Virus record (IMG/VR): IMGVR_UViG_3300020037_004820
Source of the DNA: a virus
Lineage: Duplodnaviria; Caudoviricetes
DNA length: 64,000 nt
Strand: one strand, 5' to 3'
This document shows positions 28,883 through 36,227 of the stretch, in pieces. Within the stretch, counting starts at the first letter, position 1. The number at the start of each line of letters is the position of its first letter. A program made the position numbers and the translations under genes. Under the pieces are notes generated by a model. That model was given only the letters and a program-made list of their open reading frames with translations. It ran no database searches and was not told where the DNA came from.

Positions 28883-31009
28883 TTGAATACATATACACAA
28901 GAACTTTCGGATTTTATATTTACAAGTAAATATGCCAGATATGACGATTCCAAAAAACGTAGAGAGACATGGGAAGAATCTGTTGATAGACTCTTAAACA
29001 TGCATTTAGATAGATTTACATGGTTAGATCCTGTAGATACAAATGAAATTATAGAAGCATTTGACGCTGTTAAGCGCAAAGAAAATGTTCCATCTATGCG
29101 CAGTTTACAATTTGGAGGAAAAGCCGTTGAAGCTCATAACTCTAGATTGTTCAATTGCGCCGTCAGACACGTTGATTCAATTCGATCATTTTCAGAAATA
29201 TTTTATTTATTGCTTTGTGGGTGTGGAGTGGGAATTGGCTTACAGAAGAAGTTTTTAAAGAGATTGCCCAATTTAGTTACAGCAGAAGATAAGACAGGTA
29301 CTGTTTTAACATATGTTGTAGAAGATACAATAGAAGGATGGTCAGATTCCATCGAAGCTCTATTATCCTGTTATTTCAAAAATACTGCATGGACTGGACG
29401 AAAGATTGTCTTCGATTATTCTAGAATTAGAAAAAAAGGCGCTATATTGAAAACAGGTGGGGGCAAAGCTCCTGGGTATAGAGGATTAAAAAAAGCTCAT
29501 ATAAAAATCAAGAATATTCTTGATTTCATTATTGAAGAAATGGGACAGTTATCATTAGGATCTATAAATGCATATGATATACTAATGCATTTAGCAGATG
29601 CTGTATTGTCTGGCGGAATTAGAAGATCAGCTTGCTCTATTGTCTTCTTAGAAGATGATATAGATTTGTTAAATTCTAAAATTTACTTTAATGTCTTAAA
29701 GAAAGGTAAATTTGAATTTAATGAAAAAACTTCTAAATATGAAGGATATGTTATTATTGATGATCCTTGTTATAAAAATTTGAAGATTGATGTAGAAATT
29801 TCTAATCAATATGGAGCTTATGATACCTTACTAAAAGATAATATCATAAGTTGGTTTGAAGTTTATCCACAAAGAGCAAGAAGTAACAACAGTGTTCTTC
29901 TTTTAAGAAATAAAATAGATTTTGAATCATTTACTAGAATATTTGATAGAACCAGACAATTCGGTGAACCAGGATTTGTGTTTGCTGATCATGAAGATAC
30001 TTTATTCAATCCATGTTTTGAAATATCCTTTATACCTGTATATGAAGGAGTATGTGGTGTACAGTTTTGTAACCTTAGTAGTATAAATGGGGCTAAAATT
30101 AAAACAAGAGAAGATTTGTTAAAAGCTGCAAAGTATGCTTCTATAATAGGAACATTGCAAGCATCTTATACTGATTTTCCATATTTAAGCAAAGCAGCTA
30201 AATGGTTAACAGAAGAAGAAGCGTTATTAGGGGTATCTATTACAGGTATGATGGATAATCCTGAAATAAATCTGAATCCTTCTATTCAAGAAGAAGCAGC
30301 TACTGTTGTAAAAGATACAAATGAAATTTGGGCTAAAAAGCTTTATATAAATCCTGCGGCAAGAACAACCTGTATAAAACCAGAAGGAACCTCTTCTCTT
30401 GTTTTGCAAAGTGCATCTGGTATACATCCTCATCATGGGCGAAGATATTTCCGAAGAGTGCAATGTAACAAAATTGATCCAGTTTATATGCATTTCAAAA
30501 AATCCAATCCACATATGTGTGAAGAAGGTGTTTGGAGTGCAAATAAAACAGATGATGTTATTACATTTCCTGTTGAAGTATCAGATACAGCTTTAATCAA
30601 AGAAGATTTATCTGCTCTATCCCATTTGGATATCATAAAGAATACCCAACAATATTGGGTACAAACTGGTAAATCTAAATACAATAAGAAAAGTATAGAC
30701 AATAATGTCTCTTGCACCGTAATTGTTGGACAAGAGGAATGGGATCAAGTTATTCAGTATCTATATGATAACAAAAATTATTTTGCAGCAGTTTCTTTCA
30801 TAGGAAAATCTGGTGATAAAGATTATGTGCAGGCTCCGTTAGAAAATATTACAACCAAAGAAGATGAAGAAAAATGGAACAATATTGTATCTAATTTTAC
30901 CAAGGTAGATTATACTTTATTGAAAGAAGCAACGGATCAAACAGCTTTGCAAGCCGAATTGGTTTGCGCCGGAGCAAATGGGTGCGAATTGCCTATATTG
31001 ACAAATTGA
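28883..31009 (+). CDS. nrdJ: class II (adenosylcobalamin-dependent) ribonucleotide reductase
   Basis: KYAR, RETWEE, PSMRSLQFGG, FNC, GGIRRSA, SNNS, NPCFEI, CNL, TTCIKPEGT, C-terminal CAGANGC; TTG start with AAGGAG. Confidence 0.93.
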   Translation: MNTYTQELSDFIFTSKYARYDDSKKRRETWEESVDRLLNMHLDRFTWLDPVDTNEIIEAFDAVKRKENVPSMRSLQFGGKAVEAHNSRLFNCAVRHVDSIRSFSEIFYLLLCGCGVGIGLQKKFLKRLPNLVTAEDKTGTVLTYVVEDTIEGWSDSIEALLSCYFKNTAWTGRKIVFDYSRIRKKGAILKTGGGKAPGYRGLKKAHIKIKNILDFIIEEMGQLSLGSINAYDILMHLADAVLSGGIRRSACSIVFLEDDIDLLNSKIYFNVLKKGKFEFNEKTSKYEGYVIIDDPCYKNLKIDVEISNQYGAYDTLLKDNIISWFEVYPQRARSNNSVLLLRNKIDFESFTRIFDRTRQFGEPGFVFADHEDTLFNPCFEISFIPVYEGVCGVQFCNLSSINGAKIKTREDLLKAAKYASIIGTLQASYTDFPYLSKAAKWLTEEEALLGVSITGMMDNPEINLNPSIQEEAATVVKDTNEIWAKKLYINPAARTTCIKPEGTSSLVLQSASGIHPHHGRRYFRRVQCNKIDPVYMHFKKSNPHMCEEGVWSANKTDDVITFPVEVSDTALIKEDLSALSHLDIIKNTQQYWVQTGKSKYNKKSIDNNVSCTVIVGQEEWDQVIQYLYDNKNYFAAVSFIGKSGDKDYVQAPLENITTKEDEEKWNNIVSNFTKVDYTLLKEATDQTALQAELVCAGANGCELPILTN

Positions 31010-31032
31010 CAGGGATATAGCCGTGCATATAT
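31006..31032 (+). promoter_or_regulatory. sigma70-like promoter, TGACA-N11-GTGCATATAT
   Basis: TTGACA gggatatagcc GTGCATATAT; same layout recurs at 45772-45798. Confidence 0.6.
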
Positions 31033-31064
31033 AAGGGTATATCCCTTATTAACTTTAAGGGAGA

Positions 31065-31853
31065 ATGTGTATGAACACGATTACAGAGTTTGGAGCATGG
31101 GCAGGATACGCAGCTTTACAGAATCCAGATAAATATATAAAATTGATCAAACAGGTTGGCCTTGATCGTATTGATATAATGATCAATGATGGAACGAAAC
31201 CAGGAGGTTTTAGTTTATATTTTCCTGAGCAAAAACTTATAGATATATTGAAGAAATTTAGACAATCAGGTGTTAAAGTATCCATTTCAACTTGGGCAAA
31301 ACCAGAAACAAGCTGGACAGTTGGAATGGCTCAAGTAGGAAAAATAGCTACTGAGGCAGGAGTTGATCAAGTAACATTAGATTTAGAAGAACCTTGGATC
31401 ACTCCATTAAAAAATAAATCTCCTGCTGAGATATTTACATGGAATACATCTTTAGTTGGAACATTACGTGTTCATTTTCAAGGTGTTATAAATTTGGCAC
31501 CTATTGTATATGCTAACCGAAAAGTATTGGATGGTGCTTTGCAAATGGTGGACCAAATAATTCCACAATGTTATTCAACTGTAAAAAATGTTCCAGGCTC
31601 TGGACACGATGGAAGTTTAGAAAGAGCTACTGTGAATTTATATAAGGGATATGGAGCACCTATCGTGATGGGTGCTGCTGCATGGAATTTGGAGGGAGCT
31701 TATGGAAAAAATACATATGAAGCTGTTAGAACATCATTACAAGCTACACTCCAATTAGGAATAACAGAAGTTCGGTATTGGAGATTTGAATTTCTCAACG
31801 GGGATGTTCTTAGAGCTATAAAAGAATTTCTGCCTTCAAATAATGTAGGCTAA
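31065..31853 (+). CDS. putative glycoside hydrolase-like TIM-barrel protein
   Basis: alternating beta/alpha pattern, TLDLEE, IPQCY, YW at the C-terminus. Confidence 0.45.
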   Translation: MCMNTITEFGAWAGYAALQNPDKYIKLIKQVGLDRIDIMINDGTKPGGFSLYFPEQKLIDILKKFRQSGVKVSISTWAKPETSWTVGMAQVGKIATEAGVDQVTLDLEEPWITPLKNKSPAEIFTWNTSLVGTLRVHFQGVINLAPIVYANRKVLDGALQMVDQIIPQCYSTVKNVPGSGHDGSLERATVNLYKGYGAPIVMGAAAWNLEGAYGKNTYEAVRTSLQATLQLGITEVRYWRFEFLNGDVLRAIKEFLPSNNVG

Positions 31854-31883
31854 CATTTCAAATAAACAAATACGGAGTAAAAG

Positions 31884-31958
31884 ATGATTAAGTTTATCGA
31901 CATAATTCAAGATTTATCCTATGGAGATTGTGGTTTTGATAGACTATTTATTGCATGA
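31884..31958 (+). pseudogene. duplicated 5' end of purA (24-aa mini-ORF)
   Basis: MIKFIDIIQDLSYGDCG|FDRLFIA* versus intact MIKFVDIIQDLAYGDAGKG at 32705; own RBS GGAG. Confidence 0.88.
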
Positions 31959-32704
31959 AATGTTTAATTTGTCCAAATGAAACTAAAACTAAGAAAGCAA
32001 TAACTTGTTCTAAAAAATGTGCCTATCAATATAGAAAACTTCTTTTACAAGAAAAACATGGAGTTGAAAATCCTTTTCAACTCCAGTCAGTGAAAGATAA
32101 ATCCACAAACACTATCCTTAAAAAATATGGTGTCAGTAACGTATCTAAAAGTGATGAAATTAAGAAAAAGAAGATCAACACTTGTCATAAAAATTTCGGT
32201 GTAGATCATCCAGGTCAAAGTTTAAAAGTTAAAGAAAAAATTAAAGAAATATGTTTATCTAAATATGGTGTTGAGAATCCCATGTTTGATGAAACTATAA
32301 AAAATAGGTCCGTAACTAATGGTGGAGGTCGAGCTGTTCCTAAAAGATATATAACTAAATATGGTAATGAGATAATTGTTCAAGGATCTTATGAATTAGA
32401 TTTTGTAAAAGAATGTGAACAATTAAATATACCCATTAAAAACGGACCATGTATAAATTATGTATTCAAAGGTAACAATAGAAAATATTTTATAGATTTC
32501 ACGATAGAACATACTGGTACAACAAAAATAGTTGAAATAAAAAGCACCTATTATTTCGAAAAATATAAAGAGGAGATATTGTGTAAAAAATTATTTGCAG
32601 AAAAATATGCGTTAGAAAACAATATGCTTTATGAACTGATAGTTTTAGATAAAACTCGAAAAGAACGAAAATATTTACTAGACGAATTAAATAAGGAGAA
32701 ATAA
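31955..32704 (+). mobile_element. free-standing homing endonuclease (YGV.NP repeats + PD-(D/E)XK/TnsA-like domain)
   Basis: N-terminal CxxC..CSxxC, repeated K(H/Y/F)GV.(N/H)P units, QGSYE, YFIDF, IVEIKS. Confidence 0.8.
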
Positions 32705-33820
32705 ATGATAAAATTTGTGGACATTATACAGGATCTCGCATATGGCGACGCGGGAAAAGGTGCTGTGGCATATTCTCTTTCTAAAAAACCTGAGTATGAT
32801 ATCTGTATGAGAGTAAATGGCGGGTCTAATGCGGGACATACAATTTACCATGAAGGTAAAAAATTCGTTACTCATCAAGTTCCAACTGGTATTTTTCACG
32901 GTAAAACATGTATAATTGGTAATGGATGTGTTGTTAACGTCTCAAAACTTTTAGATGAGATCAAAGAATTAGAAGAAGCAGGCATTTCTTGCAAAGGAAG
33001 GATTTTCATAGCGCATAATGCTCATATTGTCATGGCTGATCATGTAAAAGAAGAAGAGAACGAATCTGCAATTGGAACAACCAAACAAGGGATTGGACCT
33101 TGTTATAGAGATAAATACGCTCGCAAAGGATGCAGAGCGATTGATCTTCTGTTTGAGCATATTTTTGAAGGCAAAGAAGAAGAAGGATATTCATTGATCT
33201 ATTCAGAAAAATATGGTCCGTTGAGGGATCATGTTATAGATATGATCATTGAAGTGCACCCTGTCTTGTTTGTTTCAAATAAAAACTACGGTATTCTTGT
33301 AGAAGGTGCGCAAGGCTATTATCTAGATATCGATCATGGTGATTATCCATATGTTTCTTCTTCACATGCTTCTGTTGCAGGAGCATTGCTGAATGGGCTT
33401 CCGTTTAATAAAATCAGAAAGGTATATGGAGTTATTAAGGGCTACGAAACTTATGTTGGTGCAATGAAATTCCAACCATTAGATCCTATATTTGATAAAT
33501 TAGGAGACTTGGGACAAGAATTCGGGGCAACAACTGGAAGACGTAGACAGTGCAATTGGTTAAATTTGGATAGACTTGTAAAAGCTATGCAAGTCAATTG
33601 TGTGACTCATTTGATTGTATCTAAAATGGATATTCTTAGAGAATTGAATTTTCAAGAAAATAATCAATATTGGAAAGTGATCATAGGTTCTATAGAGTTG
33701 CCTCTTGTAAATGAAGAGGATTTTTATATGGTTCTTGAAAATACCATCACAACTTATCATTCTTTTGACTTGAAGAATCTTCAATACAAGTACGGTCCCG
33801 ATCAAGAGATAACTGTATGA
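32705..33820 (+). CDS. purA: adenylosuccinate synthetase
   Basis: GDAGKG, GGSNAGHT, IGTTKQGIGP.Y.DK, EGAQG, D.DHG.YPYV, GATTGRRR, KMD. Confidence 0.93.
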   Translation: MIKFVDIIQDLAYGDAGKGAVAYSLSKKPEYDICMRVNGGSNAGHTIYHEGKKFVTHQVPTGIFHGKTCIIGNGCVVNVSKLLDEIKELEEAGISCKGRIFIAHNAHIVMADHVKEEENESAIGTTKQGIGPCYRDKYARKGCRAIDLLFEHIFEGKEEEGYSLIYSEKYGPLRDHVIDMIIEVHPVLFVSNKNYGILVEGAQGYYLDIDHGDYPYVSSSHASVAGALLNGLPFNKIRKVYGVIKGYETYVGAMKFQPLDPIFDKLGDLGQEFGATTGRRRQCNWLNLDRLVKAMQVNCVTHLIVSKMDILRELNFQENNQYWKVIIGSIELPLVNEEDFYMVLENTITTYHSFDLKNLQYKYGPDQEITV

Positions 33821-34041
33821 GTGATTGGATAAGTGTACATGTACACGAAGATGATCCTATTTATATTTTTTGCATAAATAATGAAAAGCTAGCTATTGTA
33901 TATTTCATTGGTGGACATGTAGAAAGACCTGATGAATGGGTTATTAAATTCAAAGAAGATATGCATTGTCAAGGAAATCGCACAACATTCTCTTTAGAAA
34001 GAGCCAAACAAATTGTTGAAGAACACTTCGGAGTAATATGA
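33817..34041 (+). CDS. hypothetical protein
   Basis: ATGA-coupled ORF. Confidence 0.5.
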   Translation: MSDWISVHVHEDDPIYIFCINNEKLAIVYFIGGHVERPDEWVIKFKEDMHCQGNRTTFSLERAKQIVEEHFGVI

Positions 34042-34280
34042 GTGACTTACGTAAAGTTGAAAAATTAGACCCAGAAGATCTTACATGGGCTACATTAAGA
34101 ATGGCAGATTTACAAATTGGAGATATTTTTAGATTAAGTGAATCCGATACGAAATGTTTCGGAGAATTTAGAGCAGATGGTGAACCTTATAAAAATGAAG
34201 AAGGTGTTTATACTATTGTAGCCATGCCATTTGATATAGAAACTTGGACAGAAATTCCAATGAAGAAAATAAATGAATAA
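34038..34280 (+). CDS. hypothetical protein
   Basis: ATGA-coupled ORF with RBS GGAG. Confidence 0.5.
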   Translation: MSDLRKVEKLDPEDLTWATLRMADLQIGDIFRLSESDTKCFGEFRADGEPYKNEEGVYTIVAMPFDIETWTEIPMKKINE

Positions 34281-34584
34281 AATATATCCATACGAAATAA
34301 TAGCCATATCAAAAGCTTATGATAAGAAAACTTCTATACAAAAAGTTTTAAAACTAGTAGAAGAAGTCGGTGAACTAGCTCAAGCAATTCTTATAAATGA
34401 AGAAGCTCATGGCACTCAGTATAGAGATAAATCACAATTTTCAATCGTAGAAGAACTTGCTGATGTTTATCTTTGTTTGTTCGCTATTTTTCCAGGATAT
34501 GATATATCCGAAGAAGCTTTTAATGAAGAAGTTGGTAAAAAATTAAATAAATGGACAAACAAAATAGGATTAACAAATGAGTAG
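34273..34584 (+). CDS. MazG-like nucleotide pyrophosphohydrolase
   Basis: KLVEEVGELAQA and EELADV motifs. Confidence 0.85.
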   Translation: MNKIYPYEIIAISKAYDKKTSIQKVLKLVEEVGELAQAILINEEAHGTQYRDKSQFSIVEELADVYLCLFAIFPGYDISEEAFNEEVGKKLNKWTNKIGLTNE

Positions 34585-35428
34585 AATAATAATTGGTTAT
34601 CACAATAATTGCAACGATGGATTTGGTGCAGCGTATGTTGCATATTTGCATTACAAAAAATTAGGATTGTTAGATCAAGTTGAATTTGTTCCTATTAATC
34701 CTAGAGCAACTCCTGATATAGATGTTACTGGTTGTAATGTTGTAATTTTCGATGTCTGCTTAGATAAAGAAGCATTACATAAATGGAAAGAAGTAGCAGT
34801 CTCGTTCAAGGTAATCGATCATCACGTATCAAATCAACGGGAATTTGGATATCTTGATTACTGCCATTTCGATATGACTCACTCAGGAGTTGGACTTGCT
34901 TGGCGCCACTATAATCCTGATATAGCTCCTCCGTGGTGGGTTGATTATATAGAAGATAGAGATTTATGGACAAAGAAACTTCCTATGCATGAAGATGTTT
35001 GTGCATTATTGTTATCAACTGAACCTACTTTTGAAGCTTATGATGAGATTGCTTCTATGACAGTTGAAAAAGCTGCCGAGGCAGGCAAATATATTGCTAA
35101 AGCTGATATTGCAAAAATCAATAGAGCAGTTCATAGTTCATCGGCTATTATGCGTGTATCTTTTTGCGGATTTGATAATATTCCGTGTGTTAACAATGCA
35201 AATTTCCAATCAGATATAGGCAATCTTCTTGCTAAAGATGCAGAATTTGGAATCGTCTGGTATGCAGGAGATTCAGAAAAAGATGGAAAATATGCTCAGC
35301 TTTCATTGAGAAGTATAGGGGACTTTGATGTTTCAAAACTTGCTCAACGTTTTGGAGGCGGTGGACATGCAAATGCTTCTGGTTGTAGAATTCCTCTTAA
35401 AGATTGGATGAAAATTCTATGTATATAG
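34577..35428 (+). CDS. DHH/DHHA1 phosphoesterase (NrnB-like)
   Basis: YH..C.DGFGAA, IDHH, SG..LAW, DRDLW, SLRS, GGGGH..ASG. Confidence 0.9.
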   Translation: MSRIIIGYHNNCNDGFGAAYVAYLHYKKLGLLDQVEFVPINPRATPDIDVTGCNVVIFDVCLDKEALHKWKEVAVSFKVIDHHVSNQREFGYLDYCHFDMTHSGVGLAWRHYNPDIAPPWWVDYIEDRDLWTKKLPMHEDVCALLLSTEPTFEAYDEIASMTVEKAAEAGKYIAKADIAKINRAVHSSSAIMRVSFCGFDNIPCVNNANFQSDIGNLLAKDAEFGIVWYAGDSEKDGKYAQLSLRSIGDFDVSKLAQRFGGGGHANASGCRIPLKDWMKILCI

Positions 35429-35673
35429 AATATATGATAATAGATAGAGATTTTTTGGAAAGTGAAGAATTATCAAGAGAACCTATTTGGTGTGCTTATG
35501 AATTGGAAAATTGTGGCAATAAAATTGCTATAGGTATATGTGGATCTGTTCCTATTAAATATCGTAATCAAGCTTTCTCTTTTGGAGAAGTAGATGAATT
35601 ATTACATCATCCATATATTGAAGTTTCTCTAGTTAGAAAACGAGAATTATCTAAGCAAAGAAGAGAAATATAA
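35404..35673 (+). CDS. hypothetical protein
   Basis: coupled ORF. Confidence 0.45.
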   Translation: MDENSMYIEYMIIDRDFLESEELSREPIWCAYELENCGNKIAIGICGSVPIKYRNQAFSFGEVDELLHHPYIEVSLVRKRELSKQRREI

Positions 35674-36227
35674 TGAGTAAACCAGGTTATCATCTTCAAA
35701 AAATAGATAAAGGTGTATTTGGAGAATTTTCCAAAATTCAAGAAGAGCTTGATGAAGCGCAAGATGCCATATATCAAAAATGTAAAATTATGGAATTAGT
35801 TGAGCTATCTGATGTGTATGGAGCTTTAAAAGAAAAGAAGAATATGAAACAAAAACTATTCACAGTCACAGCTAATGATTGTACATGGAATTATTACAGA
35901 GGTTCGGGTCCAGGCGGACAAAAAAAGAACAAAACAAGCAATTGTGCTAGAGTTGTACATGAACCATCTGGAGCAGTTGGAAAAGGCGAACAAGGTCGCT
36001 CTCAAATAGAGAATAGACAGATTGCGTGGAAACAAATGGCGAATAGTCCAGAATTTCAAAATTGGTGTCGCAATAAATCATATGAGATTTCAGGTGATGC
36101 AGAAATTATTAAAAAGAATGTAGAATTTGAACTTGTTTCAAATACATTAGTTGAAATAGAATCCGAAGATGGATGGATTCCTGGGCAACAAATAACAGAA
36201 CAAGATGTAAAAAATTCGAGGGAATAA
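35673..36227 (+). CDS. fusion of a MazG-like N-terminus with a GGQ peptidyl-tRNA hydrolase (RF-1) domain
   Basis: KI.EE..E...ELSD in the N-part; RGSGPGGQKKNKT..C.R..H.PSG and RSQ.ENR from ATG 35844. Confidence 0.82.
   Translation: MSKPGYHLQKIDKGVFGEFSKIQEELDEAQDAIYQKCKIMELVELSDVYGALKEKKNMKQKLFTVTANDCTWNYYRGSGPGGQKKNKTSNCARVVHEPSGAVGKGEQGRSQIENRQIAWKQMANSPEFQNWCRNKSYEISGDAEIIKKNVEFELVSNTLVEIESEDGWIPGQQITEQDVKNSRE

Follow-up and report, generated by a model that had tools for sequence, protein, structure and literature searches.

A predicted homing endonuclease at the P-loop codons of a phage purA gene, accompanied by a second gene start

The 64,000-nucleotide (nt) stretch of the virus record IMGVR_UViG_3300020037_004820 (Duplodnaviria; Caudoviricetes), referred to here as the window, contains a gene for a predicted homing endonuclease placed between a complete purA gene, encoding a short adenylosuccinate synthetase, and an orphan copy of the 5' end of purA, the layout that characterizes the mORFs of fungal mitochondria and the WHO elements of yeasts. 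Judging its function from this layout, we consider it very probable that the nuclease gene belongs to a gene-end-replacing homing element at the purA P-loop, in a version that exchanges the 5' end of the gene and brings a ribosome-binding site (RBS) with it. The record is that of an uncultured virus, and the contigs of the window's relatives (L numbers for loci, P numbers for proteins) were reached through protein searches; a blastn search of a phage collection returned no close DNA relative of the region.

Two purA starts and the nuclease between them

The features of the locus, all on the + strand, are as follows, with open reading frame abbreviated as ORF and amino acids as aa.

31065..31853, +, conserved 262-aa gene without a Pfam match; this left flank, together with the orphan head, is common to nuclease-free relatives
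31854..31883, +, original purA leader; GGAG at 31874-31877, with a gap of six nt to the orphan ATG
31884..31958, +, mini-ORF of 24 codons, made of the orphan head and 7 junction codons; its TGA at 31956-31958 overlaps the nuclease ATG at 31955 (ATGA)
31884..31934, +, orphan purA 5' end, codons 1-17, ending ..GDCG at the P-loop
31935..31954, +, left end of the putative element and leader; starts with TTT, ACTATTTAT at 31943-31951, no Shine-Dalgarno (SD) sequence
31955..32704, +, predicted homing endonuclease gene, 249 aa; TAA at 32702-32704 abuts the purA ATG
32690..32704, +, RBS of the resident purA; GGAG at 32695-32698, inside the last nuclease codons
32705..32755, +, putative replacement (element-borne) purA 5' end, codons 1-17, P-loop GDAG
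32705..33820, +, intact short adenylosuccinate synthetase gene (PurA-like, PF00709), 371 aa

The first-pass annotation of this DNA had described a mini-ORF with its own RBS that duplicates the first 17 codons of purA, breaks off exactly at GDxG|KG and overlaps the endonuclease ATG with its stop codon, and all three points hold. Across these 17 codons the orphan and the resident start share 14 of 17 residues and 34 of 51 bases, and the similarity stops after codon 17 (GDCG|KG), where the intact purA goes on with KG and the mini-ORF continues into 7 codons unrelated to purA. The accompanying claim of many synonymous differences is correct for 9 of the 14 shared residues, which by hand count are encoded by different codons, but three changes (I5V, S12A, C16A) alter the residue. 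A search of the window with the purA N-terminus recovered the orphan with an E-value of 4e-7, and a comparable duplicate of the head was found in just 1 of 73 other purA loci (L077). Weak head duplicates in L011 and L013 were rejected, being the C-termini of an unrelated small protein. The sequence ahead of the orphan ATG is similar to that ahead of the resident purA ATG, and no promoter- or terminator-like site was found between the 262-aa gene and the orphan.

Comparison with unoccupied alleles suggests which of the two starts belongs to the locus. The first-pass annotation expected that endonuclease-free relatives would have the orphan head joined to KG, and this is what L079 and L080 contain: both lack the nuclease, and the N-terminus of their PurA is the exact 17-residue orphan peptide followed by KG. 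The same peptide is found at the N-termini of P0004 and P0006. At the nucleotide level the orphan matches these empty alleles at 43 of 51 bases, while the resident start matches them at 34 of 51, compared with 42-47 of 51 for the empty alleles among themselves; the closest match of the resident start is L077 (42/51). The orphan end is likewise nearer to the unoccupied allele than the resident end is in L088 (38/45 vs 32/45), where the orphan is closest to the start of L001 (38/45) and matches its own resident start at 32/45. Relative to the empty alleles, the resident purA is 67% identical over codons 1-17 and 80-84% identical over codons 18-40. The GC content at third codon positions is higher in the first 22 codons of purA than in any other 22-codon bin (0.41 vs 0.26 overall), and the first bin is also the highest in L077. 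Because of the base matches, the divergence of codons 1-17 and this GC content, the resident purA start looks imported or recoded and the orphan looks native, which agrees with the earlier proposal that the element brings a replacement 5' end together with an RBS.

The resident gene product is predicted to be PurA-like. It matches PF00709 with an E-value of 5e-83, and the GDAGKG, GGSNAGHT, TTGRRR and SKMD motifs are readable in it; its relatives found by protein search are 64-85% identical. The PHROG 1211 label on this gene reads as PurZ-like activity, and a PurZ or diaminopurine identity was considered and set aside, since comparison with PDB sequences places the protein far closer to bacterial PurA (E 1e-56) than to PurZ (6fm1 and 7odx, E 1e-15 to 1e-17). 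The PurZ-like label together with MazG-like and DHH neighbors had suggested a link to base modification, against which the same comparison speaks. The first-pass annotation called the gene essential, a description that does not stand for an auxiliary phage gene, whose essentiality is not demonstrable.

The 249-aa protein between the two starts is Cys-rich at its N-terminus and has a series of helical KYGVxN modules (DUF7487), followed at the C-terminus by a nuclease domain of the PD-(D/E)XK type. Its match to Pfam DUF7487 (PF24308) has an E-value of 2e-24 and a score of 87.2 bits (cut-off 27) and extends over positions 29-212 of the 220 in the profile, and the protein falls in PHROG 3339, labeled homing endonuclease; no characterized member of the DUF7487 family was found in the literature searched. 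The TnsA-like endonuclease N domain (PF08722) scores 21 bits in the window protein, below its cut-off of 26.5, and is listed for the nuclease relatives P0124, P0125, P0127, P0129 and P0132. An AlphaFold (AF2) model with a pLDDT of 84 contains helical repeats and a C-terminal alpha/beta domain, and for that domain the top matches in Foldseek are PD-(D/E)XK nucleases throughout, namely Bax1, TnsA (probability 1.00) and R2 RLE. Residues E147, D181 and E194-x-K196 are invariant among 10 nuclease relatives. The window protein is accordingly described here as a predicted homing endonuclease with its catalytic residues intact.

Distribution of the nuclease and its junction

At the syntenic site in the window's own clade the nuclease is patchy: it is present in the window and L088-90, reduced to remnants in L001 and L077/78, and absent from L079-L083. 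Homologs of the 262-aa gene lie directly 5' of purA in L079 and L080, the upstream gene of L080 ending 8 nt ahead of the purA ATG, and 5' of variable cargo in L077, L081, L082 and L001. The gap is filled by unrelated small ORFs in the nuclease-free L081 and L082/83, and just the last 24 nuclease codons are left ahead of purA in L001. A 288-aa ORF with no relative among the fetched loci (L001:5023-5889) occupies the place of the nuclease in L001, ahead of these codons. L077, the closest relative of the window, has the same resident-type start (GDAG) and keeps a 27-nt piece of the orphan that is 92.6% identical to 31907-31933; L078 has the same piece, decayed further.

Beyond this clade, every nuclease relative of at least 43% identity sits within 10 nt 5' of purA, abutting it, overlapping it or leaving a gap of at most 8 nt, while the more distal upstream genes differ. 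These loci are L015 (where the nuclease is degenerate), L084-86/L092, L087, L088, the P0125 locus, L093/L107, L094/95/L110, L096/97/L111/112, L104, L105, L106, L108, L109, L113 and L116. The PurA proteins at the nuclease-bearing loci are just about 40-65% identical to that of the window. The retrieved nuclease relatives of 35% identity or less (L075, L098-L103 and L114) have no purA nearby, and a scan of viral contigs with the nuclease as the single query returned one distant locus. The nuclease family is thus linked to the purA site in many lineages.

The junction at the left end is shared as well. We searched the 110 nt upstream of each nuclease start at 14 loci for the pattern GGNGAYNNNG, an optional G or C, then TTTT, which was written from the first four cases; the remaining six were found with it, so that the motif occurs in 10 of the 14 loci, 32-50 nt 5' of the nuclease ATG, compared with a background rate of 0.0018 per 110 nt. 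A related AT-rich leader comes after the motif in the same 10 loci, and a 9-mer within it is common to the window, L088 and L087 (shuffle p about 0.02). The word CTATTTA was tried as a promoter word and rejected, as it is not enriched in the window (16 found vs 23 expected), although the leader is still conserved by position among nuclease relatives. A further reading, in which the junction codons are a piece of the YYDxY region of the nuclease and the left join falls inside the nuclease gene, was dropped because the leader is homologous across lineages.

Full orphan heads with their own RBS are found beyond the window in L094/95/L110, L088 and L113, and the orphan of L094/95/L110 ends ..GDCG with the same GGT|TTT junction as in the window. 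Short orphan remnants occur at six further loci besides the window, L088, L094 and L113. Most lineages retain just 4-6 P-loop codons beside the junction, the rest of the head having decayed (for example in L104, L105, L106 and L116), and in several lineages the orphans end at the same P-loop codon. Judged from these sequences, what persists of the orphan is the segment common to every purA. Since the junction recurs and the P-loop codons persist, the layout belongs to the clade as a whole and is no peculiarity of the window genome.

Some loci carry traces of more than one event. Two orphan heads lie 5' of a single nuclease gene in L113 (L113:63-110 and 715-756), the distal one with a good RBS and start and the proximal one with the GGT|TTT junction. 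In L087 (L087:230-312 and 1197-1343) an older nuclease 3' remnant (..YDKNKRE..) and then a decayed head precede the nuclease gene. The two orphans of L113 and the older nuclease remnant of L087 suggest serial invasions; the last 24 nuclease codons of L001 are a trace of the same kind, and all three lie outside the window. The resident purA of L087 has a degenerate P-loop (GDACKK), and P0012 and P0014 read GDxGKRE at this position; some of the purA copies with degenerate P-loops may, by their sequence, be inactive or altered in function.

Proposed mechanism and competing explanations

On the observed anatomy, empty alleles, fixed association with purA, shared junction, and nuclease motif with its predicted fold, we infer a position of cleavage, a resistance of the resident allele, a route of repair and a translational coupling. 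The mobile unit would consist of a short AT-rich leader, the nuclease gene, an RBS and replacement purA codons 1-17, and its insertion point would fall in the P-loop of purA, precisely where the Gly codon meets the Lys codon (GDxG|KG). In a mixed infection, the enzyme would cut an unoccupied purA in or beside the P-loop codons. The right end of the break, KG and the purA body, would invade the occupied allele and copy leftward, taking in first the replacement start and its RBS, then the nuclease gene and finally the leader, and the copy would rejoin the left end by way of the P-loop remnant and whatever other homology exists on the 5' side. Intron homing in T4 provides a documented case of repair in which one side has very little homology (PMC2988022). 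The native start of the recipient would be stranded as the orphan, with its old RBS retained, and the gene would run from the imported start. No RNA or protein splicing would be needed, because purA keeps working from that start.

The window nuclease would probably be translated by termination and reinitiation from the orphan mini-ORF, through the ATGA overlap. The distance from the stop of the mini-ORF to the nuclease ATG is 0, 12 and 15 nt in the window, L094 and L088, and there is no SD sequence between them in any of the three. Reinitiation from the orphan RBS is plausible because the nuclease gene lacks an SD sequence of its own, no promoter- or terminator-like site was found and the stop and start codons overlap, and we regard coupling of the nuclease to the orphan as plausible from these sequences.

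Other explanations of the locus were weighed against a gene-end-replacing element. The orphan could be a passive, one-off scar left by an ordinary free-standing intergenic endonuclease through one-sided homology and an illegitimate join, and would then contribute nothing to mobility or expression. In its favor, T4 offers documented cases of one-sided, illegitimate repair in homing (PMC2988022), the upstream genes vary between lineages, no remnant is seen in L111 and L015, and in L077 other DNA follows the same breakpoint. Such a scar does not easily account for a junction and leader that recur in 10 of 14 loci despite PurA identities of just about 40-65%, because independent scars would not share a leader, and P-loop codons are kept beside the junction where the head has decayed (L104, L105, L106, L116); we judge this explanation unlikely. 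More improbable still is a general hot spot for cassette shuffling in the gap that separates purA from the 262-aa gene, with the nuclease as one of several passengers and a duplication unrelated to it. That would suit the unrelated small ORFs found in the same gap in L081, L082/83, L077 and L001 and the orphan remnant beside a non-nuclease gene in L077, but the duplication always stops at the same P-loop codon, the nuclease clade adjoins purA in every lineage whatever the upstream gene, and among the 73 purA loci duplicates occur just with the nuclease or with nuclease remnants.

A splicing element is a further candidate: the insert might be an intein, or an intron of group I or II, through which the first head becomes connected to the body of purA. 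Its position in a conserved motif, the endonuclease that it encodes and the final T of the orphan would fit one. Against this, a search of 31000-34000 gave no Rfam family at E-values up to 1, and an intein is ruled out by the stops and the change of frame that lie between the head and the nuclease ORF. The resident purA, for its part, is full length and has an RBS and a start codon of its own. The orphan, moreover, decays in L077 and then L078 and shrinks to 4-6 codons in most lineages. Splicing has very little probability left and is excluded as far as the sequence tells, as the first-pass annotation had supposed in proposing an invasion without it. The least probable explanation, to which we give almost no weight, is that metagenome assembly fused two purA alleles that occur together. 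The contig does come from an uncultured virus, but identical PurA and nuclease proteins occur on 5 contigs, and equivalent layouts come from unrelated samples and assemblers (L088, L094/95/L110, L113); an assembly artifact is unlikely because independent samples share the layout and the identical proteins recur.

Several observations weigh against the gene-end-replacing element that we favor. L111 and L015 have no orphan remnant, and the remnant of L092 is doubtful. A missing SD sequence is weak evidence for coupling, since some nuclease genes without an orphan ORF also lack one (L096, L015). Resistance of the resident start is unreadable from the sequence: the P-loop codons of the nuclease-bearing L096 resemble those of the nuclease-free L082, and an attempt to read resistance from P-loop codons gave no consistent rule. 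The E-values of the Foldseek matches are weak (about 1e-2), and the assignment to a nuclease family comes here from sequence and a structural model. About 44 residues, a Cys/His finger-like segment present in 8 of the 9 nearest relatives, are gone from the window nuclease (31955-32030). Comparison of the L088 and window gene starts suggests that they were probably lost by an in-frame internal deletion between two CxxC-coding repeats, and the loss could have impaired the window nuclease. Finally, a duplication without the nuclease, which the first-pass annotation listed as speaking against its proposal, does occur in L077/L078, where the orphan remnant is broken at the same codon and joined to an unrelated gene of 68 aa, of which L081 has a small homolog. 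We do not take this as a refutation because the orphan there is decaying and the resident start is of the element-borne type. L077/L078 reads as a later loss or replacement of the nuclease, or as the same break repaired from a nuclease-free resistant template.

The P-loop codons of purA are altered in a different way in four nuclease-bearing relatives, in which one extra A (..GAT GAA A GGC AAA..) breaks the frame. The altered sites are at the following positions.

L105:2290-2330
L107:2290-2335 (= L093, L115)
L109:2215-2260
L116:4509-4532 (- strand)

In these alleles the head ORF and a body ORF of 312-329 codons are both intact. A 26-nt patch around the extra A is 96-100% identical, compared with 32-58% in its flanks, and a search of the viral collection found no unshifted version of the patch. 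A +1 shift at GAA-A-GGC would restore GDEGKGKV. The site has, in order, a run of G, a gap of 2-3 nt, the shift codon, an AGG codon and a stop three codons on, and it resembles the prfB frameshift site (PMC12421855). By their sequence, the extra-A alleles may be resistant alleles rescued by programmed +1 frameshifting, or pseudogenes. A more elaborate proposal would combine them with the homing element: the P-loop remnant would be a conserved left arm, serving as microhomology or as an operator, and would define a distinct spliceless class, whose cleavage the sister alleles of L105, L107, L109 and L116 would have escaped by a one-base insertion rescued through a prfB-like +1 frameshift. We advance this only tentatively and think it somewhat doubtful. 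Such a class could move between very distant purA genes because it is flanked by both halves of a universally conserved motif.

Other genes near the locus were also compared. Downstream of purA the window contains the following.

34273-34584, MazG-like gene, from a reading of the sequence by eye
34577-35428, gene of the DHH/DHHA1 phosphoesterase type, from Pfam matches of homologs in relatives
35673-36227, gene of the RF-1/peptidyl-tRNA hydrolase domain type, from Pfam matches of homologs in relatives

LAGLIDADG endonuclease ORFs adjoin the DHH/DHHA1 phosphoesterase gene in L077 (L077:5648-6010) and L080 (L080:5658-6116), and there is none at the matching place in the window (34577-35428); the DHH/DHHA1 flank is a further place in these phages where a homing endonuclease occurs patchily. 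A class II ribonucleotide reductase has 1017-1018 aa in L080:106-3162 and L082:1-2886 and 708 aa in the window (28883-31009), and the insertion of about 310 aa in L080 and L082 could be an intein.

Relation to known elements

The way in which the gene is occupied is not unprecedented, and the first-pass annotation's emphasis on an intron-less and intein-less mode can be placed beside two systems that do likewise. In fungal mitochondria, mORFs produce "gene hybrids" in atp6 of Allomyces macrogynus and in atp6, atp9, cox2 and nad3 of Glomus (PMC3630166). Like the window element, they have a free-standing endonuclease ORF in the end of a gene, a diverged substitute end and no splicing, and the stranded native end is nearer to the allele of ORF-free relatives. 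They differ in being borne by organelles, in replacing the 3' end and in using LAGLIDADG or GIY-YIG enzymes, whereas the window has a phage host, a replaced 5' end and a predicted DUF7487 / PD-(D/E)XK enzyme. With the 5' end replaced, the element must supply an RBS and a start codon, and the orphan retains its old RBS and may drive translation of the nuclease.

The WHO elements of Torulaspora and Lachancea yeasts home into FBA1 (PMC7282813). They too combine a nuclease gene with a gene end and strand the previous end as a fragment at each homing, and the end that they carry confers resistance; repeated invasion leads to clusters of decaying fragments, as in L113 and L087, and a WHO fragment has been proposed as a recombination arm. 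Unlike the window nuclease, WHO proteins act in meiosis and are of an intein-like LAGLIDADG-zinc-finger kind, and it is the 3' end that is replaced. Allele-specific cleavage has been demonstrated for WHO, while the window element is known here from its sequence.

Among phages, the closest comparison is with the free-standing endonucleases of the T4 type, SegF, SegG and MobE, known for intronless homing, and with the split genes Aeh1 nrdA/mobE and T4 gene 60/mobA (PMC2988022). Their genes also lie outside introns and may sit in conserved functional regions, and they spread by double-strand-break repair with co-conversion of flanking markers. Unlike the window nuclease, they are GIY-YIG or HNH enzymes, and their genes are intergenic or split the host gene into two polypeptides that reassemble; the review that covers them (PMC2988022) describes no spare gene end or orphan duplicate. 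The endonucleases of introns and inteins resemble the window element in that they interrupt a conserved active-site motif, with one half of it on either side, in a host gene that stays functional. In the window this function is kept by a duplicate gene end, with no ribozyme (Rfam) or intein blocks.

We found no description of a gene-end-replacing homing element in phages in the literature searched. The lifestyle itself is known from mitochondria and yeast; what is new is the 5'-end version with its RBS, the enzyme family, the purA P-loop as the target and the clade-wide junction. Read in this way, the element has a third way to occupy a conserved active-site sequence, with neither an intron nor an intein but with a spare gene start and RBS. 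Taken together, about ten related lineages and their sites, some empty, some occupied, others decaying or invaded twice, predict the position of the cut to within a few bases, and DUF7487 joined to a PD-(D/E)XK domain is nominated as a family of candidate site-specific enzymes. For annotation, short orphan ORFs with a good RBS beside nuclease genes would be read as stranded gene ends, and the 5' ends of auxiliary metabolic genes in phages can be foreign mosaics. If the frameshifted sister alleles are real, pressure from a selfish element would be linked to the origin of programmed frameshifting.

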